A stretch of DNA of 64,000 nt from a virus. Shown here in pieces: positions 1,060 through 55,293 of the stretch. The translations under genes were made by a program, and so were the position numbers. A model generated the notes under the pieces. That model was not told the origin of the DNA, searched no databases, and saw only the letters and a program-made list of their open reading frames with translations. Every line of letters begins with the position of its first letter. Positions within the stretch are counted from its first letter, which is position 1. The stretch is from positions 32,001 to 96,000 of the IMG/VR virus record IMGVR_UViG_3300022700_000278, one strand, 5' to 3'.

Positions 1060-4000
1060 TTGCCCCTAAAGAACGACAACTCGTTTCTACTGTCTGGCTC
1101 ACAGCCACAAGACCCAACTGAATCTTCTGGAGCATTCGGGGTAGCTGGAGCAAGTCTTGCTGGCATTGGCCTTTCTGGTATGGTGCCGATTGGCCAAAAG
1201 AGGCTGTGGGACTATTATTTAAGCGGCATTAAGGCCGTAGAGACGGGGTTCCCTGGCGCTGTCTTAAGAACCTTTCGGGTATCAGAAACTCTTTCTCCTC
1301 TGGAGACATGGTCTAAGTTTGACCTGTCTCAAAAAATTATAGAAAGTAGGAGTCTGTACGGCCAGTATCTACGCCGGATGCTGGGCGAACAGACGTTGTC
1401 TGCCACGATCTCTCGGGGCACGGGAGTTTTTGGCGAGGTCGTAGACAAACAAGGAAAGACAATTGGTCTTGCCGCTAGCGTTGCGTCTGGCACGCAACGA
1501 GGCGAGACGATAGCTGACTATTACGCCAGGCTTGCCGGCGTTCCTGTTGACGAAGGCCTTTCTATTAGAGAAGGTGCGCTGAGATCAAGGTGGCAAGCAG
1601 AGGGTGCTGGCGTTCCCTATAAGAAGTGGGTAGACAAGCTTTCGTTCTCTGAGCGACAGCCTTCTATTCCTTTAATTGCTCCGTTTAGGAAAGAAGTCGA
1701 GTTTCTAGGAAAGAAGATTAGTCTTGGATCGTCTGCACAGCGAGCAGTTGCCAGAGCAGAAATCTTTCAGCGGTTTGTTCGGGCTAAAACAGCCACGACA
1801 GTAGGCCGACTCAATACGCTATTGCGCAAGCCTTTCGAGATGCCTGGCATCGGGAAGGCTTTGAAAAAAATACCGCTCATTAGTGGTATTGGGATGACAC
1901 CAGGCCCGGCTTCTTCAATGGTAGGAGGCTATGTCCGAAGGGGGATAGTTGCTGGCGGCGTCATGACCGCCTTGTCGTATTATGACTATCTCAGAAGCCA
2001 GGGAGGTCCTTCCTCTTTTGTCGCCGGTCCTGCTCTTGGCGGTGTTCTTGGCGGACTGTTGTCAAAAAAACATGGACGGCCAATTTCGGTAAAAGGAGCA
2101 ACTATTGGAGCGGCTGTCGGACTGGCGACGGCAATTTCTCCGCGTTTCCAAGAAGGTTTGTTCCATGGTGCTCTTTCACTTGTCGCAGATCTAAACCTTG
2201 CCAGGGCTGAAGTTTCCCAGAAACTTGGGTTGCAAAAAGCCGTTAGCCGCCAAGAAGAAATAACTCCTGGTCTATTGTCGGTTAAAACAGCAGCCGGATT
2301 TGCCGGTGTTGGTGCTCTTGGTGCCGGAATGGCTGGCTATGGAAAGCTTTTGGGCGTTGCAGCCAAAGAAAAGATGGCAACCAAAAGGCCATTTGAAGAG
2401 ATCTTTTCCCGTCTTAGAAGCGAATGGTATGGCGAAGGAGAAGAAATAGGTCGAGCAGGGGACTGGATTCAGCAAAAGATTGGTCGCCGACTAAAAGGTG
2501 TTCCGCTTGTTGGGAAGCGCCTCTCTAAAATAAAAAGCCCGATGGCGATGGGGGCCGTCGGGGGTGCTGCTCTCTGGTTAGTTGCCTCCACAGGCCTTCC
2601 TCTGTTGTCTGGAAACATAGGAGCTGCAATACCGGGAGCTAACCTGTTGGCGACAAAGGAAACTCCAGAAGAGTTGAGGCAGATATATTCTGGCGAGAAG
2701 GAGATTCCTGTAAGAAAAGGAAGGTTTTGGGAGATGGGTCGTTCCACCCCATACGAAGGTGGGCGTATCCAGTATTACAGAAAGCATGCTTTAGAGCGCC
2801 TTAGAGCTAGGGCATACCAGAAGGGTGTGTGGGGCGACGAAGAAGAAAAATGGGCCCACTCTCCCTTGCTGCATCCTTTCAAGGCTGTTTTTGGAAGTGA
2901 CGAGTGGAAGTATCACTATGAGATAAAACACCAATATGATCGGCCTGCTCCTTATTCTGGGACATACGGAGAGGATGTGCCCTTCATAGGTCCTCTAGTT
3001 GCTGCTACGGTAGGAAAACTATTGAAGCCGCGAAAGTATGTTCGTCCAGAAGAATGGATGGGAGAAAACGGGTACAGACATATACCTGGAGAAGAAGAGC
3101 CTGCGTATGAGCTTGGGGGTCTTCCACCAGGGGCCCCGGTTGCTCCCGAGGAAACTTCTCAGTTGCTTAATGAATTAATGTATAGGCGGCGAGAAGCGGT
3201 CGGTCTTGTTGGTTTTGCCGAGGGTGCTATTCAGGAAGCTATAACTGGGCGAGAAGAATACTTCCCCAACCTGACTACCATGGCCACGATGGGAGAAGAA
3301 ACTTCTTCTGAATATTGGTTGTGGGAGCACCTGAACCTGGGTGGTGCGCTTGCAACCTCTGAGGTTGTTAGGCGGTTTGTTCCTCATGAAAGAAGATATT
3401 TAGAAAAATACAATCCTTTGGCACGACAGGCTCCTTCTTGGATGCCAGAAGATTACTTCATAGACTTAAAGCGGGGCAATCCATTTGAAGAAATACCAGA
3501 AGCAGAGCTTCGTTTTCCTGGGGCGGGATATGCATCTTTGCATCCAGAAGTAGAGGGGTTGTCTCCCGAAGAATATCCGCTGGCTCATCGTCTTAAAATT
3601 CTTGGTGACGTCGCCTATTGGAGTCCCGAATATAGAAGCTTGGCGAAGGTTGCTCGCAAGGGACTGGGAGGTATGTCTCCAGAGCACCAAAGAATGGTTG
3701 ACCAAACAATAGAGCAGGTAAAAGAGAAAAAGCGGAGAAGAACATTCGACGAGTATCGTTTTCGCGACGAAGAGCTATCGGAAATGATGCTCACGATAAG
3801 GGGTGTCTTGTCTCCAAGAGAAGTGGTCACAAAAGAGCTTGGTCCTATGAAAGTATCGTTGCGTGGAGTTGGGGCAACTAGAGGGAATATGGACGAAGCA
3901 TTGGCTGCTGCAGAAGAAGCTCTTCTTGGCAAGAAAGTTTCTGTCATGACGCCTTCTTTGGAAGGTCGGCGCTATGATATCGTCTCGTCCGGTCCAAGAA

Positions 4001-5256
4001 TGAAGGGCGTCGCCATGTTAGACGACATCCCGTATGGCAGGTGGATGGCCGAGCAGGGATACACAGAAGAAAAGCCACTAGAGGGTGAGTTTGAGCAGCT
4101 CCAATATGATACGACGGCTAGAGTAGCCGGAGGGATTTGGGAGAACTTATCCCGTGCCATAGAGACTCCTTTTGAGGCTCTTACTCCGTTTTCCCCCGCA
4201 GCCAAGCTTATTAGAAAAAGATCTGCAATAGAAGAGTATGCCAAAACAGAAGCTATAAGCACCGAAGCTTCTTTCTGGAACAAGCCCTTGGAAAATTTTA
4301 TTTTCCCTGCCATGGAAGAGATGGAATATGCTCTTGGTGACGAAGAGATTCCTCAGCCAGTTCAAGAGAAAAGAAGAGCTGAAGAATACTTCGACATGTT
4401 GCAGTGGGAAAAGCAAAGAAGGCTTGCTGCGACAGCAGAAACGCCAGGAGATAAAGGCCGGGCATTAGCGCTGCAACGCAATACCATGTTTGGGGCCGAC
4501 CCATTTGGAAGTCCAGTTGGTGTTATGAGGTCGTTGCCCAGGACTTCAAGAGACTTCTTTCAGGCATTTTCAGAAGCAGAGACGCTTCGAGATAGGCAAA
4601 AAATTATGTCTCTTGTGTCAGAACAAGAAAGACGTGTTTATCTTGCTCAGTGGATGCGACAGCAACAGGTTGCTTTAGAGGCAAAGAAAATGGCCAGGTT
4701 GATGACCCGTCAGGACGCGATGAACCTTAATCGTATTTTGATGGCGCGTCGTTCCGAAGGATATGGATACACCTCCTCTGATCTGGAAGAGTGGGAGGCG
4801 GAAAGAAGCAGAGGTATTGCTTTCGACGATTGGCTTAGAGACAAGAAGGCCAAAGAATATTGGGACACACACTCCTTGCCTGGGGCCGATTGGATCGGCT
4901 GGCACCCCTCGGTCGACTTAGAAGATACACAAGCCCGATATCTTGAGCAGGAGGGGTTTGATCATCATGACTTTGACATCTGGGGAGATAAGATGCGCTC
5001 TCTTGCTAGAAAACCATATATAGATCAGGCCGCAGTCTCTTCTCTGAATCCCTTTGCCAATTCGCCTAGGGATTCTGTTGCTCAGGCCGCGCTGACCAAA
5101 TACAACATGAAGGCTCTGCAAAGTTCTTTGGGTGCTGATAATTCTAGGATAGAAATATCGAATATTGAAACGCCAGGAGTAAGCAGATACAATATAGATA
5201 TAAAAGATGAAAGATCTAGTTTGATAGAGGATCTAATGAAGGAGCTTGGTCTGTAG
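1060..5256 (+). CDS. Tape-measure-like / ejected virion protein with Gly-Ala-rich hydrophobic segments and a degenerate SNase-like domain
   Basis: 1398 aa, TTG start; several G/A-rich hydrophobic stretches in the N-terminal half; helical charged C-terminal half; follows the chaperones; SNase-like segment at about 3781-4065. Confidence 0.6.
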   Translation: MPLKNDNSFLLSGSQPQDPTESSGAFGVAGASLAGIGLSGMVPIGQKRLWDYYLSGIKAVETGFPGAVLRTFRVSETLSPLETWSKFDLSQKIIESRSLYGQYLRRMLGEQTLSATISRGTGVFGEVVDKQGKTIGLAASVASGTQRGETIADYYARLAGVPVDEGLSIREGALRSRWQAEGAGVPYKKWVDKLSFSERQPSIPLIAPFRKEVEFLGKKISLGSSAQRAVARAEIFQRFVRAKTATTVGRLNTLLRKPFEMPGIGKALKKIPLISGIGMTPGPASSMVGGYVRRGIVAGGVMTALSYYDYLRSQGGPSSFVAGPALGGVLGGLLSKKHGRPISVKGATIGAAVGLATAISPRFQEGLFHGALSLVADLNLARAEVSQKLGLQKAVSRQEEITPGLLSVKTAAGFAGVGALGAGMAGYGKLLGVAAKEKMATKRPFEEIFSRLRSEWYGEGEEIGRAGDWIQQKIGRRLKGVPLVGKRLSKIKSPMAMGAVGGAALWLVASTGLPLLSGNIGAAIPGANLLATKETPEELRQIYSGEKEIPVRKGRFWEMGRSTPYEGGRIQYYRKHALERLRARAYQKGVWGDEEEKWAHSPLLHPFKAVFGSDEWKYHYEIKHQYDRPAPYSGTYGEDVPFIGPLVAATVGKLLKPRKYVRPEEWMGENGYRHIPGEEEPAYELGGLPPGAPVAPEETSQLLNELMYRRREAVGLVGFAEGAIQEAITGREEYFPNLTTMATMGEETSSEYWLWEHLNLGGALATSEVVRRFVPHERRYLEKYNPLARQAPSWMPEDYFIDLKRGNPFEEIPEAELRFPGAGYASLHPEVEGLSPEEYPLAHRLKILGDVAYWSPEYRSLAKVARKGLGGMSPEHQRMVDQTIEQVKEKKRRRTFDEYRFRDEELSEMMLTIRGVLSPREVVTKELGPMKVSLRGVGATRGNMDEALAAAEEALLGKKVSVMTPSLEGRRYDIVSSGPRMKGVAMLDDIPYGRWMAEQGYTEEKPLEGEFEQLQYDTTARVAGGIWENLSRAIETPFEALTPFSPAAKLIRKRSAIEEYAKTEAISTEASFWNKPLENFIFPAMEEMEYALGDEEIPQPVQEKRRAEEYFDMLQWEKQRRLAATAETPGDKGRALALQRNTMFGADPFGSPVGVMRSLPRTSRDFFQAFSEAETLRDRQKIMSLVSEQERRVYLAQWMRQQQVALEAKKMARLMTRQDAMNLNRILMARRSEGYGYTSSDLEEWEAERSRGIAFDDWLRDKKAKEYWDTHSLPGADWIGWHPSVDLEDTQARYLEQEGFDHHDFDIWGDKMRSLARKPYIDQAAVSSLNPFANSPRDSVAQAALTKYNMKALQSSLGADNSRIEISNIETPGVSRYNIDIKDERSSLIEDLMKELGL

Positions 5257-8200
5257 TGCCTGATTATCGAGAAGAACGTTCTCCGCTGTGGGGATTAGCA
5301 GCAACGGGTGCTTTTGCTGGTGGGACTGCATATGGTTTGCAGGGTCGTTGGCAAGAGCTTTTTCGAGCGACTCAGTCGGCGAATACGAGACAATATTCGG
5401 CGGCCGAGCAAGCTGTCGGAGGCATGGCTCGTTTTGCAGAATCAGCCAACGCCACGGGCTTAGGTTTGTTAAGAGACTTCGCTGGGACAGAAGTAGCTGC
5501 AGCAGATGCGCCTGCGTTTAAAAGAGATGTCGCTATAAGCGCCTACGAGGCCATTCTGAAGGGCAAAGGACAGACTGGTCATGAGGAGGCCTATTCTGTT
5601 TTTCAAGAGGTTGTGGGGGCATCTGATGCGACACAGGCTGCTTCTGTTGCCCAAAGAGAACTAGACCGGTTGGGTGGGGATGTTGGTCTTTTCTCGAAAA
5701 GAGTAGAACAGTTTTTCCCCGGCGGGGCCTATGAGGGACTCGCCAAAGACATGGGAGAATTCTCTGGGATGGTTCTCTCTGATCCCAAGACAGAGATCCC
5801 GTTTACGGCGCTATCTACACAGAGTCGCTCCGTAGCAGAAGAGACACAGGCTCGCTTGGGGAGAATTTTTAAGGATAGGTCGGTTGCCTGGTCTCCAAGC
5901 TATCACAAGGTTGGGGAGCAAGAAATCTTAAGTGCGACCATTAGCACGCCAGGTCGCCCCACTCACTTAAACATTCCTCTTAGATCCGATGTGGGAGAGA
6001 CATATGCTGGTCCCGGGTTTAGAAACAAATATATAACCAGAGGAGCTTGGGAGATAACCCCACAGGGGGTTCGGCAAAAAAGCATTTCTCAGCTTTATCT
6101 GGATACGCTAGAGACAGAAGCCTCTATGGCAGAAAGTTCTGTCGGGCTTGCTCGAGCTGTTGAAAGAGCCAAGACTACGGTTCAAGAAAAAACAATGGTC
6201 TGGAGTCCGTCCGAAGAGATGCTTACAACAGGGGACCGGTTGCGTCAAAGAATCACAGCGTCCCAGAGAGCATATGTCGGCAAAGACATTTCACCTGCGA
6301 CAATTCGAGCAGGCATAGAGGCAGGGGGGTTGCCGCTTGGATCTCCTGCTCAAGTTGCCAAGGGAGTGTTGACGGACGTGGACTGGCAGAAAGAGTTGCT
6401 TGGTCCGCTGGGAGAGTTGATGCCCGCTCACAGAAGACCCTTGCAGTTTATTCGGGAGGGATGGCAGCTTTCTGATATAGCAAGAACAGAGCAAGGGGGG
6501 ACTTATGCTCGTGAGGGTGCCCTGGGAGAGCTGGCTTCCAGGTTTTCTCCTGCGGTAGCACCTGGGTTCGAGGAAGCAACAAGGGGGCATGTGGCGCCTG
6601 CGGCATCAACGTTTTATTTGAAGCCTGGTGCTACGGACTACTCGAAACAGTTAGCAGAAGAAATGGGAATCATGTCTCGAGAGGCTGCTGCTTTGCAAAA
6701 GTGGGAGAGGGTCTCTTCTCAAAAGCTACGGGTCGCCGAAGGAATGCCTTTGACAAACGAAATCAAGCAGCATATGGAGAAAGAAACCTTAGAGCTGGGG
6801 AAGCCCTATCTTTTTGACCAGCCAGTTCCTCTTGAGCCTGGCCAGGGCCTTGGCATCGGAGACAAGGGGCAAATAGCAAAAATTCGCCGCAAACGAGGGG
6901 TACAGCAGTTTCTTATGGGATATGAGGTATTGGATGCCGGAAGAATAAAGGCCAATATCAAAGAGGTCGTCCACATGAGAGATGGCGATGTGCAAAAATT
7001 CTTCTCTGCTGGATCCGACATTAAGCACACCATCAAGAGAGCGGATCCACAGGAGTTTTTGAGAACGCTGGGAGTAAGCACAGCCCCCGTCGATGTTGTG
7101 GTGCCCGGAGAGAGATTGACAAAAACCCCATATGCGTTGTTTTCTCAGCAGATAAGTGGAATGCAAGAATTTGCCGCCAAAAGAATAGATGCTGTGAGGG
7201 CGAAGGGAATCATCTCGGACATTTCTGGACTAGAAGAGTACGTGAAAGATCCTCTTCGTTCCCTTGGCTTAACAGAGGATTTCCTTGGCAGCAAGAAGAT
7301 TCAAAAGACGGGACAGCTTTCCAGTGCGATTCAAAACAGAATTGTTTTAGGTGCCGAGCGCCTTGGTCTAATGAGAAGCAAGATTGCTCCAGAAATTTTT
7401 GGGATGATGGATCCGGCAGACGTCGACCGAATGATAGATGTGGCAGAGGACCTCTCTGAAGAAGTTGTTTCTGTTGAGACCAAAGAAAAGCTTATGCGGG
7501 CAATAGGTGCTTCCAAGGGCGTCCGTGGTTCTTCTCATATGTTTCTTGGAGATCTCATAGCAGAGGGCGGAACAGGGAACATGGCCAAGTGGGAGCCTTC
7601 TTTGTTCCATTGGTTGACGAAAGGTGGCCCCCCTGGTCTTGGTGCCAAATGGGCAACTGACATAGAGAGAAGGCTTGTTGGCCAGGAGGGTGCCGAAGAT
7701 ACAGTAAGAGAAATGACTAGGATGCAAAAAAGCCTCTTGGGAGAGGGGAGCTTTGTAGAAAGAGTTAAGGCTGGTTTCTTAGACGAGGAAGACTTTTTGT
7801 CTTTGGGAAAAGACGACCTGGTGAAGGCTCAGGGAAGATGGGTCAATCTTGGACAGAGCGTTGACGAGTTTGGCGGCAAAAGAATTTTTATTCCTGGGCA
7901 CGAGGCTGCCCCGCAACTGGGGTCTCTCAAAACAGATACGGGAGAGCTTGTCCGGTCTGAATTTGAAAATGCTTTGTTTGACTTGCAGTCCTCTTTAAAA
8001 GATCAGTCGGAGAACGCAGAAAGAAAGATATTAGAATCTGCAAGAAACTTGAGAGCAATTGGACACGCACAGTGGAGTGGCGCTGTTACAATGAGAGAGC
8101 GTGCATATGGTACCAGAATGCTCGCTGCTCAACGTTTGCAGATGATAGACGAGGCCGAGGATCTTGCTGATAACGTGGCAAAGTATACTCACAAAATAAG

Positions 8201-9737
8201 CTCTCGTACTGCGACAGACATGTTTGAAGAAATGCAGGCAGCAGCACCAGACGAAACAACCAGAGCCTTTCTTTCTGCTCAACAAGAGGCTTTTGAACAG
8301 GGAGAAAGAATTCCAGGGCTTGTCGGAAGATATCCTGCTGTGGGTCCTTATAGCGTTCAGCCAACATTCTTTCAAAAGGCCGACGACGCGTTAGACGAAG
8401 CAGTGTACTCTCCAGACATCGACGACGAAATCACAATTGCTGGCGAAGGAATTCGCGGAACAAGCAAAAAAGTCAGCGTTGGCCAAGGGGTCGGACAGAG
8501 ACTAGACTATGACCTTGACCGACAAATTATTTCTTTTCTGTCTGATCAAGAAACTTCTTCAAAGACGTCGCGTTATTTGTCGGGACAGCTTGCAGGAGAT
8601 TACGAAGAATTTCTTGGAAGGCACTATGGCCTACAGCAATTGTTTGAAGAAAACAAGCCAGCAGGTGTTGATGTTGCAAGAGGCATACAGGAAAGGCTTG
8701 ATAGTGGAGCAAAACACTATATTGGGCAAATGGGAATTGGCAAAACAAATGTTGCGTTAGAAAAATTTCGTCGGGCCTCTGCTTTGAGAGGCGCTGACTT
8801 CCAGGCAAAATACGAACCCCTGCTTTGGCATATGGAGGAAACGGCTACTATTATGGCAAAGCATGGTGGCGCTCACGCTGCAGAAGAGCTCTATTCTAAA
8901 TATGGACGAGCAACTGCAGCAATAGAGAGAGGAAGAGTAGATGAAGGCGCAAGGCTTCTGCAAGAAACCATCGAAGCGCTGGGCGGAAAGGAATCTGCTA
9001 GGCTAAGTGTGTCCTTTGCCAGAACGGGCAGAGAGGTTGCGTATGATTACGATCCTTCTTCGATGGCACAGGATCTGTCTAGTGCATACGCAGAAACACA
9101 CGATGAAATTCGGCCTGCCATGGACATTAGTCGACAAAGCAAACGGGCTGCCGTAAACCTTTCGGAAGAAGAGATTAAAAAACAAATCAGCTTGTTAGAA
9201 AGTCGAGTGCAGGTTGATGCAGCACAAGTGATTCGAGCACAAAGAACAATGGGATCAGCTAGCATAGGGGCGAGAACACAGAGAGCTGCGACTGTCGCAA
9301 GGAGTCGGTATAGGGCAATAGGCAATGTGTTAAAGAAGGGTAAGGGGCCAATGGCCTTGGGTGCTGCTGCGGCGGCTGGTATATTATTAGCATCACCACC
9401 TGTGTCTGGCACCATACCTGCCAATCCAAACATAGAGGGTGCTGCTGGTGGGAGAAATATTAATCCAGAAGATTCTATCCCACCGTCTGGGCCGGGCATG
9501 AGGCCTCCAAGGTCTGGAATGAGAGCCTCTCCAAAAGCTTACCTCCAGAAAGAAGGGTCTACGATGGCGAACATGAGAGCAACTTCTTCTGATTTTGGAG
9601 CGGAAAGGGTTTCGGAGACTCTAAGGCAAATGAGAGAATTGGAGTCAACAAGGATGCGCTCTAGAATAAAAATATCTGACAATCGAGAATCTCTAGATTC
9701 GAGAATGTTGGCAGACAAAATTTACCGGAGTATGTAA
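5256..9737 (+). CDS. Putative single-chain two-barrel RNA polymerase (beta-like plus beta'-like modules), probably virion-associated
   Basis: 1493 aa, GTG start overlapping the upstream stop. Collinear motifs: EEMGIMS, KEVVHMRDGDVQKFFSAGSDIK, PVDVVVP, ISSRTATDMF, PGLVGRYPAVGPYSVQ, DYDLD, EETATIMAKHGG. Hydrophobic Gly/Ala segments near both termini. Confidence 0.7.
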   Translation: MPDYREERSPLWGLAATGAFAGGTAYGLQGRWQELFRATQSANTRQYSAAEQAVGGMARFAESANATGLGLLRDFAGTEVAAADAPAFKRDVAISAYEAILKGKGQTGHEEAYSVFQEVVGASDATQAASVAQRELDRLGGDVGLFSKRVEQFFPGGAYEGLAKDMGEFSGMVLSDPKTEIPFTALSTQSRSVAEETQARLGRIFKDRSVAWSPSYHKVGEQEILSATISTPGRPTHLNIPLRSDVGETYAGPGFRNKYITRGAWEITPQGVRQKSISQLYLDTLETEASMAESSVGLARAVERAKTTVQEKTMVWSPSEEMLTTGDRLRQRITASQRAYVGKDISPATIRAGIEAGGLPLGSPAQVAKGVLTDVDWQKELLGPLGELMPAHRRPLQFIREGWQLSDIARTEQGGTYAREGALGELASRFSPAVAPGFEEATRGHVAPAASTFYLKPGATDYSKQLAEEMGIMSREAAALQKWERVSSQKLRVAEGMPLTNEIKQHMEKETLELGKPYLFDQPVPLEPGQGLGIGDKGQIAKIRRKRGVQQFLMGYEVLDAGRIKANIKEVVHMRDGDVQKFFSAGSDIKHTIKRADPQEFLRTLGVSTAPVDVVVPGERLTKTPYALFSQQISGMQEFAAKRIDAVRAKGIISDISGLEEYVKDPLRSLGLTEDFLGSKKIQKTGQLSSAIQNRIVLGAERLGLMRSKIAPEIFGMMDPADVDRMIDVAEDLSEEVVSVETKEKLMRAIGASKGVRGSSHMFLGDLIAEGGTGNMAKWEPSLFHWLTKGGPPGLGAKWATDIERRLVGQEGAEDTVREMTRMQKSLLGEGSFVERVKAGFLDEEDFLSLGKDDLVKAQGRWVNLGQSVDEFGGKRIFIPGHEAAPQLGSLKTDTGELVRSEFENALFDLQSSLKDQSENAERKILESARNLRAIGHAQWSGAVTMRERAYGTRMLAAQRLQMIDEAEDLADNVAKYTHKISSRTATDMFEEMQAAAPDETTRAFLSAQQEAFEQGERIPGLVGRYPAVGPYSVQPTFFQKADDALDEAVYSPDIDDEITIAGEGIRGTSKKVSVGQGVGQRLDYDLDRQIISFLSDQETSSKTSRYLSGQLAGDYEEFLGRHYGLQQLFEENKPAGVDVARGIQERLDSGAKHYIGQMGIGKTNVALEKFRRASALRGADFQAKYEPLLWHMEETATIMAKHGGAHAAEELYSKYGRATAAIERGRVDEGARLLQETIEALGGKESARLSVSFARTGREVAYDYDPSSMAQDLSSAYAETHDEIRPAMDISRQSKRAAVNLSEEEIKKQISLLESRVQVDAAQVIRAQRTMGSASIGARTQRAATVARSRYRAIGNVLKKGKGPMALGAAAAAGILLASPPVSGTIPANPNIEGAAGGRNINPEDSIPPSGPGMRPPRSGMRASPKAYLQKEGSTMANMRATSSDFGAERVSETLRQMRELESTRMRSRIKISDNRESLDSRMLADKIYRSM

Positions 9738-10342
9738 TGCCTACAAAACAGCAAACACAATCTGGCGAAGGAAGTCAGAAAAAGCAAGTGAAGAAAACGC
9801 AAGAAAGCGTTGTTGTTGCTAGACAAAAGGATGTTAGAGAAGAGTTCTCTGACTTGCCGGCAGATGTTTTGGTTATAAATGATATTTTGTTTAGAGATGT
9901 TCCGATGACGGCTATTTCTATAGAGAACGAAGCAGACATAGCGGTGACAGAGACTCTTAGGACAGAGGCTCCTCATATTCAACCAAAAGGCCGAGACTCC
10001 GCAGTGGTTTCATTGCAGTTGATGTTTAGAGAGGGGCATGAGCAAACAGTAACATTGCGTAGGCTGATGGCAGAGCTACAACATAGTCCGTTTGTGTTTT
10101 TAGAAAACAATAAAGTGCGACAAACTCTTTTTGCTTCGCGCGCAGGCAAGACAGGCCCTGTTTTAGAAACGATGGCTTTTGTTGTGCATTTCGGCTCTCT
10201 TTCTATTAGCCAACAACTACCAGGCACGATTGTGTTGGATCTTCAGTTGTCCGAGTTTAACTACAAGCCATTTTCTGAGCATTTTTGGTATAGCAGTACA
10301 ATAGCGGGCATCCCTACAGAGATGCGAGGAGCGAGATCTTAA
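9737..10342 (+). CDS. Virion structural protein (tail tube initiator / hub N-terminal-like beta domain)
   Basis: 201 aa, coupled TAATG; beta-rich LVINDILF..PMTAISIE...TLRT pattern; lies between the tape-measure locus and the hub. Confidence 0.45.
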   Translation: MPTKQQTQSGEGSQKKQVKKTQESVVVARQKDVREEFSDLPADVLVINDILFRDVPMTAISIENEADIAVTETLRTEAPHIQPKGRDSAVVSLQLMFREGHEQTVTLRRLMAELQHSPFVFLENNKVRQTLFASRAGKTGPVLETMAFVVHFGSLSISQQLPGTIVLDLQLSEFNYKPFSEHFWYSSTIAGIPTEMRGARS

Positions 10343-10343
10343 T

Positions 10344-13300
10344 ATGCCCCGTCGAAACATTTCCGTTTGGTCTGATTATTCTCGAGAGAAGTTTTTAACA
10401 GACACTTCTGCTGCAGAGGCGTCTCTGTCTTCTAAGAGTAAGTATGGAGCAGAAGATACTCCTACGGTTTTCCCTGCTAACTCTGGTGCGTGGATGTATT
10501 ATGCCAACCACCTAGAAGGGAAGATGCCAGTACTTTCTGAGCGAAACACAGAGTATGTTGAGTTTGAATATAGAGAGTATGACATAAAGATTCCTCCAGA
10601 AGAAGCAAGAGCAGACTTGTCTTCTCTTGAAAAGTTCTTTGGGAAAACACCATCGTGGTGGGGAGACAAGACAAAGGATCCTCTCGCACAAGAGGTTCCT
10701 AACATCCCAAGCGGAACAAGTGCTCAGAAATATGCCAGCGATGTTTTGCAGCAAGGTGGCGGCAAGATGGCCGCTCGTTTTACTGCAAACAATGGCGCTA
10801 GCTATGTGATGGGACCAAGAGATCGCTTGTGGTTGGCGCGGATATTGTATGGGGAGCTTCGGATTCACAACAACAAGACCTTTAGCCATCTTGGCGGAGA
10901 TGCTTCCGATAGCGAAGTCGTTATGCATGCTTGGATGGTAATGAATCTTTTGATGACGAAATACCATGGCGGATCTTTGCGAAAAGCTGCGAAGGCATAT
11001 TCCGAAGCGCTACAAGGCAAGACTGGCAACTTAAAAGACTATGCCCAATATGGTTCTTGGCAGAAAGCAAAGAAGACATACGAAAACAACTATGGAAAGA
11101 ACACAAATAAGTTCAAGAAGGCTAAAAGAAGATTTTTCCAGGCCAGAAATCAATATATGGCAAATGTCGCCATTTGGCCAGGAGCAGAAGAGTTTTATTC
11201 TACGGGCGCCCACGTCAGTCCGACCGGAAAGCCTATCTTGATTCCAACCAAGTTGGCTGATTTTGTTAATAGGTTTGCGGCCGGGGAAATTCCAAAACCA
11301 AGCGGAATTCCTGGCAAAATATTTGATATTTCCGCAAACAGAAATAGTATTGCTTGGGGTTCGGGCAAAACCTATGGCATCAAAGTAGAAGGAGTGAAGT
11401 GGCAAAATGGCACTTCTGCTCCAGGATTCCCCTACACCGACCTTTCTCCTCCTGGGTTTGCTTTTAGAAAAGAAGCCAAGGGTTTTTGGGGTGGCGTAGC
11501 TTTCCGGCCCAACAAACATTCTGGAAAGGGTACGTCAAACAACCTGTATGTGCGCCGCAGGTCTGTTTCGGAAGATCTTTTGCGGAGTATTTCTGCAGAC
11601 AAGATTGACACGGGGATATACGCAGACGGTGTGCCCGTTGAAGAGGGTGGTATTGAGCGCCAGGCGTTGTTTGGTCAGTCTATGAGCGACCTGGCTGGCT
11701 ATCAGGGTCAGTCTGTAGATAGTTCTTTGCTGCAAGAAACGGAGAGACAAGAGAATAGCGATCAACAAAAGACAACAGAGTTGCCCAGAGAAGAATCAGA
11801 GGGGACCCTTATAAAACAGGCTCAAGATGCAAACAAGAAGCAACAAAATAGAGCTGACTGGATAAACGATCTTGCCAGGAACGGGTGGAGATACGAAGGC
11901 ATCACAGACAACAGAGAAACTTTCAAAAATATATTTTCGCAAGCCAAAAGAATTCGCATCGGCGGAAGAGATAGCGGTGCAGTCTCAATGCAGAATGTTG
12001 TTCCCGTTGCAGCAAGCGTTCAGTTTGGACATAGGCTTGCTGAGCAAAAATTACTGGGGCAGAAAACGTCTACATTCCAGTTTTTAGGCGCCGGAAACAA
12101 GTCTGGAATTATTGTTTTGTCTGCTGCTGGAGAAGCCGGCAGGCGAGCGCTTCAAGCCGTCAAGAGAATGTATGCCACTCTTAGCTATAACGCTAGACAG
12201 ATGGGCGATTTCAGAGAGGCATCTGCTGCGAAAATTAATATTGTTGCTCCAGATGGAGCCAAGAACAACATCTTTGCTTTGTTGGATATAAACAAAATCA
12301 GTATTTCTAATGTAACAGACGAGGCGACTGTACAAGACGGCGTAGACATATATAAAATGACCATAGAGTTTTTGTCTCGTGACTTCATAGAGCCCACGTT
12401 TAAACCCAAGACCGTTTTTTCGGAAGAGTTAAAACGTCAAATTGTTTCTCGTATGCTGAAGGATCTCCAGGTTCAGGAGGTAAGTTCGTTCGACAAGGTG
12501 GCTTCTGAATCTCCTGTTTCTACCACACTAGCAAACGTTGCATTTTCTCTCAGAAAAAACTTTGAGATTGGGCTGGAGTTTATATCCAACATTCCTGCCT
12601 CTCTTGCAAGTTCTTCCGTAGCAGACGAAAACAGAAGACGCTATGATCGAATGTCCAAATACGCAGATAACATCGACTTGTTCTTAAGAGCAAGCTTGCA
12701 ACATGTAATTTTCCCGTCCAAAGATATTGCTTATGTGCCGGGATACAGCAATGCAGCTCCTCTCGTAGCTGGGGTTTACGCCCCCAGTAGCTGGGGAGGA
12801 TCGGTAGGCGGAGCCGTGTCTGGTTTTGCTGAAGGTGCCCTTTCAGGACAGAGGAAAGACATTGCGTACATGTTTAAGGCGAGAGAGTCGTCTGGGAAGC
12901 CCCAGTGGTATGTTGACCTGCTGGCCAGGTTAGCTGCTGACATAAAGGGTATTTCTTCTAGGTTCCCCTTGTTAAACACCCCCGTCGGGGTTCGGCCAAT
13001 AGAAACTATTTCGATCAGGAATGCTCTTGATCAGAAATGGGAAGGAGAGAAGACCTGGGGGGATCGCTTACGAATATTTGGCAATCAGCTAGGAGGGGTG
13101 GGGCAAAAGCTGGTTTCTCTTGTTGGTGGAGAGGGGGTTTCTGTTGAAGGAGAGAGGGTGAGGGGGTTTTATGTTGCAGACTCTCCTGACGAAGCTTCCA
13201 GGATTGGTGCACAGCAGTTTGCTTCGCTGACAGCAATTTTCAATCAAGTTGCTGTGCAGGCCCTACAAAGAGCAAATGACGGAGAGGGCTTCGCAAATGT

Positions 13301-16300
13301 TTTTGGAAAAGAAGTTGCCGATCAGGTACTTGAGTTGTCTGTTGCTGAATATGGCTCTTGTTATCCTGATCTAGACTTGCCGAACATAGCAAACACCAAA
13401 ATAAAAACAATGCCAAGCTTTTTCATGTACGAGGACGCTCTTGAAAGTCCTGGTTTGGCGCAAATCAACAATGATGCCGGCGTGCTAGATCAGCTTGTGT
13501 CTAGACACCTAGAAAATTCTGCGAAAAGCGTTTCGAGGTTTATTGGAAAGGGAGGCGCCAGCAAATTATTTGCAACTAAAAACGCAGACTATTTGCAACA
13601 GGCAAGAAAACAATATGATGAAATAGATAAAAAGGAAAAAGCATATAACGGAGAGCATGGTGCTTTTGCGGCTGATGGCAATGGGGCAGAAAATCCAGTA
13701 TCTGAATCTGCGAAAGTAAAAGATGCGATAGGATACAGGAGCGACAAGTATGCTGGCAATCCGACTGGTCCTGGCGAGACAACGAAACAACAACTTGCTA
13801 AGGTGTTCGGGAAAGAAGCGTCGAACGCTCTTTTGCGATTGCTGAAAGACGACAAGGCAACTTCGGTAAAAGATGCTTTCTTTACGGCAGTGGTGTCGTC
13901 TTCTTACTTAAACAAATTTGTGGATGGGCAAATAACTGGAATCGACCCGGACTTTGAAGACGAAAATGAGCTTTTTGCTAGGGCAAGAGATTTCTATTTT
14001 GCCGATGCGGAAGGCAAGCTTCCAGACAAGATATATGTAGGACCAGATGGCACACAGGCTAAAATGGATGCCGCTTGGGATGGAGATATGGGTGGCGGTT
14101 CTCCTCTGGGTGGCGACGCCAAGTCTGATCAAACCTCGCCTCAAGGGGGCTTGCCTTCTGCTTCTGCCCCAGATGGTGCTGCAGTAGGCGGAGTAAACTT
14201 TGGGGAACAACAGTCTTCTAGCGAATGGGAGGAAGATTATTTTGAGCCTTCTGCAGTAGAGCCGCCGCAAACAATTGATTATGAAGCAGCGGAAAACATT
14301 GCTGAATACAACAATCTTTTGTCGAAAATCCAAGCGACACAAGGAGCAGAGGCTCTTGGAAGATCGGTAGCAAGCGGCATTCGAGATCGTTTTAAGAGAG
14401 ACTTTAGTCTTGTCCGGGCCTTCCCCACCTTCAAGATTTTTTTTATTGACGAAGATAGCGACGAAGAGATTGGAGAGTTTCATGCTTTTGATGACTTCTA
14501 CAGCTATTCTGCCGTACAAGAAATTCGAATAACTCGGTCTAGGAAAATTGCGGCCGATCTGGCTGTGTTACGAATAACAGATGTCGCACACAAACTGACC
14601 AGGGGCAGGTTCTCTGATGTAGACTTGTCAACAGGTGACGTCAAAAACGAAGACTCGCTGGGATGGTGGGCAGAGACACAAAAAGAAAATCCATTTAACA
14701 ACAGGATTCTTCGAGAGGGGGTAAAGGTGCAGATCCGTTTAGGATATGCGCCAGAACCAGATCAGCTTGAAACTGTTTTCTTGGGGCAAATCACAGAGGT
14801 TGCTCCTTCGGAGGGAGGAAAAATACTTGAGATCGTCTGCCAAGGGTATGGGGCAGAGTTAGAGGCTGCGTCCATGAACGCCGCAGACAACGACGTAGTG
14901 TATTACTCTCCCCAGCACGCTCTTTGTGCCGCAATTCTACAGCCCTTTATTAAAAACTTTGGCCATTGGAGTTTTAATCAATTTTACAACCCTGCACAAA
15001 TCAGAAGAAAGTATCATGATTTTTGGGGATCTAATCTAGGAACAATCGATCAGCTTTTTGCGGCCTATCAGAGAACGCAAAGAGAGATGTTTTTCCACAT
15101 CCTTCGTTTGGTGAACTTCAGAAACGATCCACAGGATGATAATATTTTTGCTCCACCTCCATTTTTATACGAAGGCAGTGATCTGACGACTAGAATCTGG
15201 AACAACGCCAACGCTTATCACCCCTTTATGAATACTCCGTGGGAGGTTTTTAAAGAACACGAGCTTCGGTTCCCAGGGTATGCTGCGCTGCCGCTTCCTT
15301 ATGGACACGAGCCCAGAATGACTATGTTTTTTGGGATGCGCGGTCAACGATATTGGTCGAGCCCATGTTCTAAAGCACAGGCGTTCATAGCCAAGTATTG
15401 GACAGATTTGGTTCAGGCAGCGGGGGTGGGAAAGGATGGAGCTGAAAAATTAGCTTCAGATCCAAGAGCTAGGGCTGGGTTGCAGTATTTGAAACAAGCG
15501 AATCCGGGTCTATACAATGCGATAGCAAAAGAATTGTTTGGCCAGTCCAACTCAATTGGTCGATATATCGGAGAGGTGTCTGGTCGCTATCGTCCATTTA
15601 GGAACCACCACATATTTACTTCTGATCGCCACATCATAAAGAATGGCATTCGCACCAACGCAAGCAAAACGTTTAATGCAGTCCAGCTCTTTTATGCCGA
15701 TGACGAAGATCAATTAGACGTAGAAGAAATAGAAGAAGTTATAGAGTCGATGAAAGAAACATCGGAAGGAAAGGGCGGCGTGTATACCGCCAGACTAAGT
15801 GATAACATTCCAGACTGGCAGGTTCGAACATATGAAGACTCCTTTCCGTCTTGTGTGTCTTCTTATATGGCAAAACGATATGCTCACGGGCTGTTTTTAG
15901 AAGGCGTCAAACAAAGCTATGGAGGAGAGCTTGTCGTTACTGGTGAAGAGACCATAAAGCCATATGACGTGGTAATGATACAAGATCACATATCAGACAT
16001 GTATGGTCCTGTCGAGGTAGAGTCTGTCACGCATATATTCAACCAAGACACTGGGTTCGTGTCTGTCATTAACCCAAACATGCTTGTAGACTCAAATGAC
16101 ATGTGGTCAAAGGGCATAACAAGTGCGGTAACCCAGTCGCTTTCTCTTACAATGCTTGCGGCTCGTCAAAATGAAACTTCTAGCCAGCACAGGGCAGACG
16201 TTACCTCTACTGGGCTCTCTTTTGATAGCTTTTTGGCTAAGCTTGGGGCGTTTCATTTTGTTCATTGGGCCCAGACGGCAAGTCCTGTTATTTGTACTCC

Positions 16301-16511
16301 GCTTACGCATGGCGGCAAGCCGATGACAAGCATGTATACCGGAGAGAAATATTCGGCAATGTTCTCTGACATATGGGGAGAATGGCACCAGTGGTGGGAA
16401 GACTTCAACACGGGACTGGAAAAGGGAGCAATGTCTGAAGAATTCTTTAAGGCTGGCGACAGCTTGTTCCTTGATATAATGGACTTTTTCGGTCATGATG
16501 TAGGAATTTAA
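10344..16511 (+). CDS. Giant baseplate hub-like protein with a possible SleB-like cell-wall hydrolase domain
   Basis: 2055 aa, RBS GAGGAG. The C-terminal part has hub-type motifs (VKVQIRLGY..LETVFLGQITEV..ILEIVCQGYGAEL; GELVVTGEETIKPYDVVMIQD..MYGPVEVESVTHIF). The N-terminal part has DRLWLARILYGE. Confidence 0.6.
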   Translation: MPRRNISVWSDYSREKFLTDTSAAEASLSSKSKYGAEDTPTVFPANSGAWMYYANHLEGKMPVLSERNTEYVEFEYREYDIKIPPEEARADLSSLEKFFGKTPSWWGDKTKDPLAQEVPNIPSGTSAQKYASDVLQQGGGKMAARFTANNGASYVMGPRDRLWLARILYGELRIHNNKTFSHLGGDASDSEVVMHAWMVMNLLMTKYHGGSLRKAAKAYSEALQGKTGNLKDYAQYGSWQKAKKTYENNYGKNTNKFKKAKRRFFQARNQYMANVAIWPGAEEFYSTGAHVSPTGKPILIPTKLADFVNRFAAGEIPKPSGIPGKIFDISANRNSIAWGSGKTYGIKVEGVKWQNGTSAPGFPYTDLSPPGFAFRKEAKGFWGGVAFRPNKHSGKGTSNNLYVRRRSVSEDLLRSISADKIDTGIYADGVPVEEGGIERQALFGQSMSDLAGYQGQSVDSSLLQETERQENSDQQKTTELPREESEGTLIKQAQDANKKQQNRADWINDLARNGWRYEGITDNRETFKNIFSQAKRIRIGGRDSGAVSMQNVVPVAASVQFGHRLAEQKLLGQKTSTFQFLGAGNKSGIIVLSAAGEAGRRALQAVKRMYATLSYNARQMGDFREASAAKINIVAPDGAKNNIFALLDINKISISNVTDEATVQDGVDIYKMTIEFLSRDFIEPTFKPKTVFSEELKRQIVSRMLKDLQVQEVSSFDKVASESPVSTTLANVAFSLRKNFEIGLEFISNIPASLASSSVADENRRRYDRMSKYADNIDLFLRASLQHVIFPSKDIAYVPGYSNAAPLVAGVYAPSSWGGSVGGAVSGFAEGALSGQRKDIAYMFKARESSGKPQWYVDLLARLAADIKGISSRFPLLNTPVGVRPIETISIRNALDQKWEGEKTWGDRLRIFGNQLGGVGQKLVSLVGGEGVSVEGERVRGFYVADSPDEASRIGAQQFASLTAIFNQVAVQALQRANDGEGFANVFGKEVADQVLELSVAEYGSCYPDLDLPNIANTKIKTMPSFFMYEDALESPGLAQINNDAGVLDQLVSRHLENSAKSVSRFIGKGGASKLFATKNADYLQQARKQYDEIDKKEKAYNGEHGAFAADGNGAENPVSESAKVKDAIGYRSDKYAGNPTGPGETTKQQLAKVFGKEASNALLRLLKDDKATSVKDAFFTAVVSSSYLNKFVDGQITGIDPDFEDENELFARARDFYFADAEGKLPDKIYVGPDGTQAKMDAAWDGDMGGGSPLGGDAKSDQTSPQGGLPSASAPDGAAVGGVNFGEQQSSSEWEEDYFEPSAVEPPQTIDYEAAENIAEYNNLLSKIQATQGAEALGRSVASGIRDRFKRDFSLVRAFPTFKIFFIDEDSDEEIGEFHAFDDFYSYSAVQEIRITRSRKIAADLAVLRITDVAHKLTRGRFSDVDLSTGDVKNEDSLGWWAETQKENPFNNRILREGVKVQIRLGYAPEPDQLETVFLGQITEVAPSEGGKILEIVCQGYGAELEAASMNAADNDVVYYSPQHALCAAILQPFIKNFGHWSFNQFYNPAQIRRKYHDFWGSNLGTIDQLFAAYQRTQREMFFHILRLVNFRNDPQDDNIFAPPPFLYEGSDLTTRIWNNANAYHPFMNTPWEVFKEHELRFPGYAALPLPYGHEPRMTMFFGMRGQRYWSSPCSKAQAFIAKYWTDLVQAAGVGKDGAEKLASDPRARAGLQYLKQANPGLYNAIAKELFGQSNSIGRYIGEVSGRYRPFRNHHIFTSDRHIIKNGIRTNASKTFNAVQLFYADDEDQLDVEEIEEVIESMKETSEGKGGVYTARLSDNIPDWQVRTYEDSFPSCVSSYMAKRYAHGLFLEGVKQSYGGELVVTGEETIKPYDVVMIQDHISDMYGPVEVESVTHIFNQDTGFVSVINPNMLVDSNDMWSKGITSAVTQSLSLTMLAARQNETSSQHRADVTSTGLSFDSFLAKLGAFHFVHWAQTASPVICTPLTHGGKPMTSMYTGEKYSAMFSDIWGEWHQWWEDFNTGLEKGAMSEEFFKAGDSLFLDIMDFFGHDVGI

Positions 16512-30116: not shown

Positions 30117-30118
30117 GG

Positions 30119-31018
30119 ATGCCAAACACTCCTAATAGAAGCTGGCCGTATCCAGCAAAGGGCGAAAAACCTTATTTCGCTTCGTTTCAGTCTTTTGCAA
30201 ACGCTATTGATTCGGACGTGCAATCTAATGTAGATGACGTCTCGACCAATACTGGCAATATCAGTAGTCTCCAGACTAGTCTGTCTGGGGTGCAAAGTTT
30301 CATGCCTACTGGAGCACAGAGCTTTGGTGGTGGAGGCGGTCCGTATAGCATAACTACGGGCATGAGCGGGTATTCTATAACCTCTCCTACTAGCGGAGAT
30401 GTTCTGGAGCTTCCTGCTCCTAGTAGTGGTTTGAGTTATTTTATTAGTTGTGCTGGCGCAGGTAGCGACTATGTTGTGTTAGACGCGAGTACAAACGGTG
30501 GGACAATATTTGGGCCGTTCCAAACTTATTCTGGGGGAGGAGCAACTTGGAATAAGATGCGTATATTTGGAATGCCAAATTGGGTTTTTGTCTATGCGGC
30601 TGAGATTTTAGGATCTTGGAACTGGGTGGTCTGGGGCGGAACTGCCAAGATAATGAACGACGATGACACCGAAGAGTGGATGAATCTTTCATTCTATCCA
30701 GAAGAGGCTCTATTAGATCAAGCCTACAGCATTAGTGCAAGTATGACTGGTGCTAGTCGGTATAACTACAAATGGTATAACGTTGTTTTTGTAGATTGTA
30801 GCGGAGGAGCAATAGATGTTGAGATCTCTAGCAACCTAATCGGTATAGATGGCTGGACTTGTACTTTTGTAGACAGTTCAGGAGATGCGGGAGCAAACAA
30901 TATTACTCTTAGCACAGAGGGAGATGAAAAAATTATTGGTCAAGATGAATTTGTCTTGTCTGCTGATTATAACAGCGTCACTCTTGTTGCTAATGGCAAC
31001 AATTTGTTTGTTAAGTAA
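30119..31018 (+). CDS. Short tail fibre-like protein
   Basis: 299 aa; N-terminal TPNRSWPYP fibre-anchor motif plus short coiled coil; C-terminal VDCSGGAIDV..FVDSSGDAGANNITL..EKIIG..VTLVANG fibre module. Confidence 0.6.
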   Translation: MPNTPNRSWPYPAKGEKPYFASFQSFANAIDSDVQSNVDDVSTNTGNISSLQTSLSGVQSFMPTGAQSFGGGGGPYSITTGMSGYSITSPTSGDVLELPAPSSGLSYFISCAGAGSDYVVLDASTNGGTIFGPFQTYSGGGATWNKMRIFGMPNWVFVYAAEILGSWNWVVWGGTAKIMNDDDTEEWMNLSFYPEEALLDQAYSISASMTGASRYNYKWYNVVFVDCSGGAIDVEISSNLIGIDGWTCTFVDSSGDAGANNITLSTEGDEKIIGQDEFVLSADYNSVTLVANGNNLFVK

Positions 31019-31021
31019 AAC

Positions 31022-52662: not shown

Positions 52663-52701
52663 CAGTAAAGTCCTTTATTTCTTTTTCTGAGACGTGATCT
52701 A

Positions 52702-55039: not shown

Positions 55040-55040
55040 G

Positions 55041-55292: not shown

Positions 55293-55293
55293 A

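Follow-up and report, generated by a model that had tools for sequence, protein, structure and literature searches.

A predicted single-chain two-barrel RNA polymerase in the tape-measure slot of contractile-tailed phages

The P0001 gene and the predicted fold of its product

We analyzed a window of 64,000 nucleotides, bases 32,001 to 96,000 of the 114,882-bp IMG/VR virus contig IMGVR_UViG_3300022700_000278 (CheckV completeness, 61%), which carries in its tail module a 1,493-residue protein, P0001, that by its predicted structure belongs to the two-barrel (double-psi β-barrel [DPBB]) RNA polymerase (RNAP) superfamily, with tape-measure-like termini. The open reading frame (ORF) of P0001 occupies positions 5256 to 9737 of the plus strand (on which all features lie unless noted otherwise), begins with GTG, and runs through 1,493 codons with no internal stop. 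Its start shares one nucleotide with the stop of the upstream 1,398-residue ORF (TAGTG), an AGGAG lies 11 nucleotides upstream, and its own stop shares one nucleotide with the ATG of the next ORF (TAATG); P0001 is translationally coupled within a conserved tail operon. A sequence-only reading of this DNA had taken P0001 for a very divergent polymerase carrying the motifs of bacterial β and then β′ in one chain, and every motif that it quoted is present in the ORF: EE468/469 at 6657 to 6662, K581 at 6996 to 6998, K590 at 7023 to 7025, APVDVVVP from 7086, RYP (residues 1025 to 1027) at 8328 to 8336, DYDLD (residues 1084 to 1088) at 8505 to 8519, and EETATIMAKHGG (residues 1194 to 1205) at 8835 to 8870.

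An AlphaFold2 model calculated from 5 sequences was unusable (predicted local distance difference test [pLDDT], 46). The model of residues 180 to 1340 calculated from 53 diverse relatives, with no templates, reached a mean pLDDT of 91.1 and a predicted template modeling score (pTM) of 0.90. Foldseek returned at least 185 matches in the PDB at an E value of ≤1e-3, and the 50 listed at the top are without exception large subunits of RNAPs, second-largest and largest alike; a Foldseek-independent search of 48,161 chains with VIA-align placed RNAPs at all of ranks 1 to 16 (Z scores of 9.8 to 11.8). Model residues 11 to 596 superimposed on African swine fever virus RPB2 (8xxp_B; Z 13.7, 429 residues aligned; root mean square deviation [RMSD], 5.4), Rpb2 (2e2h_B; Z 13.1), and Thermus thermophilus β (5xj0_C; Z 12.2), and model residues 197 to 595 superimposed on the β-like subunits of the non-virion RNAPs of phiKZ (7ogp_C; Z 11.8) and AR9 (Z 11.6), placing a β/Rpb2-like half at residues ~190 to 775 (5823 to 7580). 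Model residues 651 to 1151 matched RPA1 (7ob9_A; Z 11.8, 369 residues aligned), 4c2m_A (Z 12.2), Pol II (7okx_A; Z 12.2), and Mycobacterium tuberculosis β′ (6edt_D; Z 9.9), with RPA1, Rpb1, and vaccinia Rpo147 at Z 11.4 to 11.8 in the VIA-align search, placing a β′/Rpb1-like half at residues ~830 to 1330 (7743 to 9245). When the best 993 chains of Foldseek were realigned with VIA-align, Z was ≥8 for 935 of them; the N-terminal half spanned nearly all of Rpb2/β (Z up to 13.7, ~430 residues aligned), and the C-terminal half spanned Rpb1/β′ (Z ~12, ~350 residues aligned). Because its halves match Rpb2/β and Rpb1/β′ in this order, P0001 is best described, on the model, as a compact β-then-β′ fusion, and the order read from its motifs is thereby borne out.

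The barrel of the C-terminal half was located with isolated DPBB domains (a designed DPBB, CDC48-N, and VAT-N), which superimposed on model residues 773 to 916 with Z 7 to 9.6 and RMSD of ~2 Å; the designed DPBB 7dww_A matched with Z 8.3 and RMSD of 2.0 over 84/86 residues, and CDC48-N with Z 8.8 to 9.6. This segment, DPBB-A (residues ~952 to 1095; 8109 to 8540), bears both RYP and the metal-binding-type DYDLD, and its assignment also draws on conservation and on the hhalign pairing with NADFDGD described below. Candidate strands of DPBB-B (residues ~517 to 595; 6804 to 7040) were assigned from the strands at model positions 338 to 416 and from conservation, and K581 and K590 lie there on adjacent strands of the modeled β-like half. 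A pair of DPBBs had been expected from the motifs, and the high-confidence model has the β-like and β′-like halves, with a barrel that carries RxP and DxDxD. After the second barrel, the model has a single 35-residue helix (residues 1144 to 1178, model residues 965 to 999, within the Rpb1-aligned range; 8685 to 8789), followed by a helix-short loop-helix (residues 1180 to 1224, model residues 1001 to 1045; 8793 to 8927) with E1194, I1199, K1202, and H1203 in EETATIMAKHGG; by their order and by the likeness of the latter to β′ EPGTQLTMRTFHIGG, these are a candidate bridge helix and a candidate trigger loop.

Compared over the whole chain with VIA-align, the model matched RDR2 (Z 10.6, 460 residues aligned) and QDE-1 (Z 10.5, 451 residues), both single-chain two-barrel enzymes of eukaryotic RNA silencing, as well as the phage proteins P74-26 gp62 (Z 9.4, 422 residues) and P23-45 gp96 (Z 6.5 to 6.8, 365 residues), the scores of gp96 and gp62 being no better than those of cellular RNAPs. 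RNAP β/β′ and QDE-1, two of the comparisons that the sequence-only reading had proposed, are thus among the matches; phi14:2 gp66 and YonO are not among the structural matches listed, which is no evidence of dissimilarity. In BFVD, the best match comes from an uncultured siphovirus and is labeled “Minor tail protein” (E value of 9e-13; template modeling [TM] score of 0.46 over 1,313 columns), and a protein of Acinetobacter phage vB_AbaM_ME3 whose size matches that of its gene 36 product (ME3_36) is among the best BFVD structural matches. The long, mostly α-helical extended body by which a tape measure protein would be recognized is not found in the model; residues 180 to 1340 are predicted to adopt a compact α/β polymerase fold.

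Conserved residues of the P0001 family and sequence comparison with known polymerases

A word-indexed search with P0001 found four relatives only (44 to 76% identity); an exhaustive HMMER search, run with a profile of three sequences, raised the number to 117 cluster representatives at an E value of ≤1e-3. Full-length relatives are almost all 1,430 to 1,700 residues long, the shorter ones resemble fragments, and among the relatives' genomes examined the family is present in a single copy. One distant member bears an RNase_T domain in a Pfam scan. Conservation was counted in a MAFFT alignment of 120 sequences with a mean column identity of 14% (14 to 24% over the 116 to 120 relatives), in which 57 positions lie above an 80% conservation cut. 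In the RxP motif, R1025 is found in 114/114 and P1027 in 112/114 sequences, with His at position 1026 in 94/114; in the DxDxD motif, D1084 (116/116), D1086 (115/116), and D1088 (115/115) are preceded by G1080 (111/115). The β-like half contributes K581 (100/105), F583 (93/104), and K590 (97/104, with Arg in 6), and the candidate trigger loop contributes E1194 (113/116), K1202 (111/113), and H1203 (97/113), I1199 also being among the conserved positions. The family consensus reads GExxxGxxxRHPxIGPYSxQP ... SxxVGxAGDxDxD ... LLExLEQxPISGKH. At such low identity, these motifs are conserved by more than chance. The sequence-only reading had staked its case on homologues keeping DxDxD and RxP, which are near invariant among the 116 to 120 relatives, and the Asp triad, two Lys, RxP Arg, and His that it listed are likewise near invariant, the His being placed in a trigger loop by likeness. 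P0001 also satisfies the filter [RK]xPx{20,100}DxDxD, with 56 residues between P1027 and D1084; this pattern was used by Chaban et al. to recognize two-barrel RNAPs (PMC10770324, Suppl. Data 4 legend).

Sequence comparison gave no significant link to known polymerases. P0001 has no match in Pfam, in PHROGs, in PDB sequences searched with phmmer, or in 50,697 phage records searched with tblastn; the profile of the 120-sequence family found zero matches among PDB sequences, and a Pfam scan of P0001 and 32 relatives gave no RNAP family at an E value of ≤1. PF00623 (RNA_pol_Rpb1_2) is absent from five related genomes and scores in 14/14 control genomes. As no RNAP family of Pfam scores, P0001 is a member of the fold superfamily and not of any curated sequence family. 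Between the family profile and Escherichia coli β′, hhalign produced a single weak alignment that is not significant (pairwise E value of 0.0076; probability, 5%). It pairs GDxDxD with NADFDGD, GIsxxxAxxMF with GLPKKMALELF, and RGkvxGSR with GKRVDYSGR, the β′ counterparts that had been proposed for these motifs; however, it sets the family RHP on “EHP” and not on “RAP,” so that the equivalence of RxP rests on the published filter and not on alignment. The hhalign alignment of the family with E. coli β is meaningless, and the correspondence of K581/K590 to β K1065/K1073 has no residue-level support from it.

The tail module, its slot, and the termini of P0001

The contig belongs to a contractile-tailed phage with terminase, portal, capsid, and sheath genes, and its replication genes (Pol III alpha, DnaG-DnaB, RecA, and ribonucleotide reductase) lie on the opposite strand. 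In the tail module, three tube paralogues are followed by two unassigned genes of ~245 residues, the conserved giant protein P0006 (1,398 residues; 1060 to 5256), P0001, a 201-residue ORF (9737 to 10342), and a baseplate hub/cell wall hydrolase protein of 2,055 residues (10344 to 16511), after which come gp25-like and gp6-like baseplate genes. The 201-residue ORF is present only in the closest relative, L001, and absent from the other syntenic loci; the hub protein was identified by PHROG matches and is by position the homologue of gp147 of phage 0305phi8-36 and of ME3_37. P0001 had been placed between tail chaperones and the baseplate hub. Its position in the tail module holds, and the two ~245-residue genes stand where 0305phi8-36 has its annotated “hypothetical tail chaperonins”; however, the gene directly upstream encodes the giant protein P0006, not a chaperone. 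The tube paralogues (221, 319, and 282 residues) are consecutive and lie just upstream of the window (G000 29033-31566; L004:11033-13566); all three belong to phrog_9206, which is labeled “major head protein,” a mislabel that recurs in the records of 0305phi8-36 and MTATph1, whose notes say “tail tube.”

The same gene order is found in 13 IMG/VR loci, one of which belongs to a complete genome of 197,730 bp that has terminal repeats. Across these loci, identity to the window proteins is 65 to 92% for tube, 48 to 80% for sheath, and 47 to 70% for P0006, and outside the closest relative it is 25 to 29% for the polymerase, whose length is kept at 1,461 to 1,509 residues (within 3%). In loci L006 to L017, the corresponding values are 65 to 72%, 48 to 57%, and 47 to 53%, versus 25 to 29% for the polymerase. 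From these identities, the polymerase evolves much faster than its neighbors while retaining its length.

Cultured phages share the module. Homologues of P0006 were found by blastp in 0305phi8-36 (gp145), ME3 (gene 35), Bacillus phage vB_BceM_WH1 (gp096), and Moorella phage MTATph1 (CDS0026), and in all four the module runs through sheath, tube, a tube paralogue, small “tail chaperonin” genes, the gp145 homologue, a giant slot protein, and the hub. The slot protein of 0305phi8-36, gp146 (2,537 residues, annotated “hypothetical tape measure protein”), has no DxDxD, nor does that of MTATph1, CDS0027; the records of gp145 and gp146 are both noted “identified as virion protein by mass spectrometry.” ME3_36 (1,603 residues, “hypothetical protein”) has KFFSVGSK and REP...(48 residues)...GGDHDQD and aligns with the first barrel of the family (hhalign E value of 6e-4), its “KFFSVGSK” being paired with the DPBB-B stretch, and WH1 gp095 (2,515 residues, “virion structural protein”) has RYP...(43 residues)...KADHDGD. 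BLAST and tblastn detected no similarity between P0001 and either ME3_36 or WH1 gp095, which occupy the same slot with other lengths and another placement of domains. Because gp146 and CDS0027 lack DxDxD and ME3_36 and gp095 have it, the slot appears to hold a plain ruler in some phages and a polymerase-bearing protein in others, the docking module being kept. The labels of these slot proteins bear out the expectation that automated annotation would call such a protein hypothetical or tape measure. We found no literature description of the P0001 family, or of ME3 gene 36 and WH1 gp095 as polymerases, in a library that is incomplete.

The putative docking module is the C-terminal part of P0001. 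Both ends of the protein are hydrophobic and rich in Gly and Ala, as the sequence-only reading had noted: the N-terminal segment (residues ~10 to 30, SPLWGLAATGAFAGGTAYGL; 5283 to 5345), recognized by eye, is of a type kept in the 13 syntenic orthologues, and residues 1364 to 1389 form the sole Kyte-Doolittle peak of P0001. The latter lie in a C-terminal tape-measure-type module (residues ~1340 to 1493; 9273 to 9734) that consists of the KxKxPMALGA hydrophobic segment (9345 to 9422), a Pro/Gly-rich stretch, and a terminal I-S-D-N-R-x-x-L (D1475 to R1477, 9678 to 9686), with D1475 in 105/110 and R1477 in 96/111 sequences of the family. By hhalign, the module aligns with the last ~150 residues of gp146 (E value of 1.1e-3) through the hydrophobic segment, EGAxG.N, and h-N-h-S-D-D-R (I-S-D-D-R), and with the C terminus of WH1 gp095 (E value of 2.6e-5; probability, 75%). 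Apart from those of P0006 and P0001, no ORF of the contig has D-x-R-x-x-L within its final 45 residues, and h-x-h-x-x-D-x-R-x-x-h is kept in both families in 13/13 loci. The same D-x-R motif is found in gp145, WH1 gp096, and MTATph1 CDS0026 and is not visible in ME3_35; gp146 and WH1 gp095 show related forms of it.

P0006 resembles P0001 in other ways as well. Both start with a Gly/Ala hydrophobic stretch, and both contain the KxKxPMA(L/M)GA hydrophobic segment (residues 1362 to 1389 of P0001 and 490 to 517 of P0006), P0006 having six Gly/Ala hydrophobic segments within residues 23 to 531. As hhalign of the two families aligns this segment only (probability, 0.7%), they are not demonstrable paralogues. 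P0006 has no Pfam, PHROG, PDB-profile, or usable ESM Atlas match, and a staphylococcal nuclease lead was rejected because its score, 0.75, lies below the reliability line of the search. Homologues of P0006 span 1,390 to 2,610 residues, and relatives carry one to three inteins (Hint/Intein_splicing plus LAGLIDADG; L006:4674-9983, L007:3208-9978, L008:4378-9717, L012:4401-9737, L014/L015:4521-9908, and L016:1851-9683), whose insertion points, three in all and highly conserved, correspond to P0006 residues ~562 (GRS|TPYEGGR), ~766, and ~1300 to 1315 (DHHDFDxWG). Since the inteins account for the length range of the homologues, mature P0006 would also be constant in length. Inteins usually occupy catalytic motifs, so P0006, which probably has conserved functional sites of its own, may be an enzyme and not a plain ruler; it is a probable co-delivered protein of the tail lumen.

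Neither the contig nor the complete 197.7-kb relative yielded a convincing second polymerase ORF with [RK]xP...DxDxD. BFVD entry A0A172Q0S6 of ME3, a protein of YonO-like size (798 residues), also matches the polymerase model (Foldseek E value of 9e-7; target-normalized TM score of 0.44), and ME3 may on this ground hold both a tail-slot RNAP and a small non-virion two-barrel RNAP; no counterpart of this entry was seen in the contig or in the complete relative.

Several further features of the contig lie apart from the tail module. Upstream of the terminase, G000 4609-8991 (L003) encodes a 1,460-residue protein with a family B DNA polymerase-type 3′-5′ exonuclease domain and a staphylococcal nuclease domain; the C-terminal D-x-R motif shared by P0006 and P0001 is absent from it. 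Twelve 18-nucleotide tandem repeats open the contig (G000 1-355; L003), and three 30-nucleotide AT-rich repeats (TGAAAATATAATTTTTTGGTTTTATTTTTG) in a 324-nucleotide gap between small ORFs (G000 2426-2532; L003) could be an origin or a promoter cluster. Within the window, the minus strand carries a sugar modification cassette at 51496 to 58966 (a DegT/DnrJ/EryC1 aminotransferase and a double GT9 heptosyltransferase-like protein), and a 294-residue protein with an RNase T/DEDDh exonuclease domain (50364 to 51248) closes the long plus-strand block. A tblastn search of the phage records gave no match for protein P0032.

Proposed function and delivery of P0001

Judged by its modeled fold, its near-invariant residues, and its gene context, P0001 is probably an active virion RNAP delivered through the tail, highly diverged, single chain, two barrel, and DNA dependent. 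We infer packaging and injection through the tail, a view strengthened by the coupling of the gene within the tail operon, its location in the gp146 slot, the shared C-terminal module, and the gp145 homologue next to it. A precedent has been published. P23-45 gp96, like its counterparts in P74-26, G20c, and TSP4, is a virion RNAP fused to the tail tape measure; it is active in vitro, is present in virions, and has been proposed to move along the tail and to carry out transcription of the first genes (Chaban et al. 2024, PMC10770324; PDB 8H2M/8H2N). This makes P0001 less novel and the proposal more plausible. Both proteins are single-chain two-barrel RNAPs in a tape-measure-slot protein with a hydrophobic or transmembrane segment, and neither resembles cellular RNAPs in sequence outside the DxDxD region. 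However, gp96 belongs to a siphovirus, and its polymerase, with DFDGD, is the N-terminal ~1,100 residues of a 5,002-residue ruler, whereas the phage of P0001 has a contractile tail, and its polymerase, with DYDLD, makes up ~1,150 of 1,493 residues between short tape-measure-type termini; the two are linked by a structural match of only Z 6.5 to 6.8, with no similarity at the level of hidden Markov models (HMMs). P23-45 also has a paralogous non-virion RNAP, gp64, of which no equivalent was seen in the contig or in the complete relative.

Other two-barrel polymerases resemble P0001 in part. Like multisubunit RNAPs, including those of phiKZ and AR9, it has DxDxD, RxP, two Lys, and the β-then-β′ order, and its candidate bridge helix and trigger loop may be further counterparts; it differs in having one chain of ~1,150 residues in place of two subunits of ~2,700, another spacing of motifs, and no Pfam RNAP score. 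The crAss-like phi14:2 gp66 (2,180 residues) is single chain and virion packaged, and its DFDID lacks the Gly as DYDLD does here, a likeness that the sequence-only reading had pointed out; gp66 is presumably not encoded in a tape-measure slot. YonO of SPbeta, with DNDGD, is likewise a single-chain two-barrel polymerase and is given as ~100 kDa in PMC5467207. 0305phi8-36 also has a YonO-like RNAP, ABS83659.1 (Iyer et al., PMC7824862), which, judged by accession numbering, is the product of a gene other than gp146; gp146 itself shares with P0001 the slot and the C-terminal module, and differs in its length and in having no DxDxD anywhere. By analogy, P0001 would work like P23-45 gp96 and the crAss-like gp66, and by position and C-terminal module it would group with the 0305phi8-36-like tape-measure-slot proteins.

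In the proposed mechanism, the three Asp would coordinate the catalytic Mg2+, with the two Lys and the Arg contacting the RNA 3′ end and the incoming nucleoside triphosphate. P0001 would be made late, together with the tail proteins; a polymerase co-translated with them would therefore be useful only to the next infection. It would be loaded into the tail via its C-terminal module, beside P0006 with the same kind of termini, and be expelled in a largely unfolded state when the sheath contracts, since the tail tube would have no room for a folded core of 130 kDa. The hydrophobic segment at residues 1364 to 1389 may then tether P0001 at the membrane or pass it through, with refolding in the cell, where transcription of the first phage genes by P0001 would need no host polymerase. 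Later genes would use either the host enzyme or P0001, since no second phage polymerase is evident in the complete relative.

Several observations speak against a packaged, active polymerase. Storage in the tail tube is difficult to square with a compact fold of 1,150 residues; since a folded core of this mass cannot sit in the lumen, storage would have to be in an unfolded state or elsewhere. The fourth position of DxDxD is Leu in P0001 and not Gly (Gly in 27/116 and Ala in 38/116 of the family), and the Gly-less DFDID of gp66 crystallized in a conformation incompatible with catalysis. The two Lys are spaced by 9 residues in P0001 and by 6 in most of the family, and both values differ from the 8 residues in E. 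coli β. Homology to gp146 is confined to the last ~150 residues, in a protein that itself lacks DxDxD. Pfam, PHROGs, PDB phmmer and hmmsearch, and PF00623 are all blind to an RNAP in this family, and sequence-level statistics against known RNAPs are not significant, the hhalign probability of the β′ alignment included. A k-mer count in the 19 intergenic regions of the contig, crude as it is, revealed no repeated promoter-like motif, only a coding-like 18-nucleotide repeat at the contig end. Finally, YonO, which is not known to be packaged in the virion, illustrates that packaging is not a necessary property of a single-chain two-barrel RNAP of a phage.

One further, tentative possibility is that the polymerase, whose length is constant at 1,461 to 1,509 residues across relatives, is itself the tape measure. 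The chain would lie extended or unfolded in the tube beside P0006, anchored at the hub by the D-x-R module, and set the tail length; on contraction it would thread in, remain tethered at the entry pore through its hydrophobic segment, refold, and transcribe the entering DNA, so that transcription would help to draw in the genome. On this view, plain rulers (gp146 and MTATph1 CDS0027) and polymerase rulers (the P0001 family, ME3_36, and WH1 gp095) would have been exchanged for one another in the slot during evolution, the docking module being kept.

Alternatively, P0001 might be an active two-barrel RNAP that is not packaged and acts inside the cell that makes it, perhaps on late genes after the manner of YonO in SPbeta, its tail position being incidental. 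YonO is a non-virion single-chain precedent, and the misfit of the folded core with the tail tube would no longer need explaining; we nevertheless consider this unlikely, as translational coupling of the gene between two tail genes holds throughout the 13+4 loci, its C-terminal module is homologous to a slot protein verified in virions by mass spectrometry, its hydrophobic termini are like those of its virion-protein neighbor, and a polymerase first made with the tail genes would come too late for the phage's own program. P0001 could also be a tape measure or ejection protein that descends from a polymerase and has kept the fold as structure while losing catalysis, as the slot, the constant length in 13 loci, the absence of DxDxD from gp146 in the same slot, and the resemblance of the Gly-less DxDxD to the inactive gp66 crystal conformation would allow. 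This seems quite improbable, because the residues that are invariant at 14 to 24% identity are exactly the two-barrel catalytic set, and a structural relic would not have held three Asp, the Arg, both Lys, and a KH resembling that of a trigger loop fixed across more than 110 lineages.

The fold alone does not fix template or product, and the whole-chain scores of RDR2 and QDE-1 about equal those of DNA-dependent enzymes, which would suit a two-barrel polymerase of another specificity, be it RNA dependent (QDE-1/RDR-like), primase-like, or DNA synthesizing (PolD-like). Such a specificity is very improbable, in that each half fits the subunits of DNA-dependent multisubunit RNAPs better (Z 12 to 13.7), the phage already has Pol III alpha, a DnaG-DnaB primase-helicase, and RecA, and the characterized phage members of the superfamily are all DNA-dependent RNAPs (PMC10770324). 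That the likeness is an artifact of motif hunting or of the structure predictor, as the poor 5-sequence model and the silence of HMM methods might suggest, is hardly credible, given a second model that is confident without templates, two independent aligners that return RNAPs almost exclusively and in the correct β-then-β′ order, and motifs picked by eye that are the invariant positions of the family.

Only P23-45 and its relatives are known to deliver a cellular-type RNAP via the tape measure protein, and few phage groups are known to bring one at all. The analysis adds a polymerase that is unrecognizable by sequence and clear by structure, in the tape-measure slot of a large group of contractile-tailed phages of 110 to 235 kb; the group with a polymerase in this slot comprises at least 117 clusters at 50% identity, including cultured Acinetobacter and Bacillus phages. 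If P0001 is indeed a tail-delivered virion RNAP, delivery of transcription through the tail would be widespread and not peculiar to thermophilic siphoviruses, and the start of infection independently of the host polymerase would be explained. The compact (~1,150-residue) β-β′ fusion would then serve the study of a minimal two-barrel core, and ME3 and WH1 would be tractable systems for the passage of a large enzyme through a tail.

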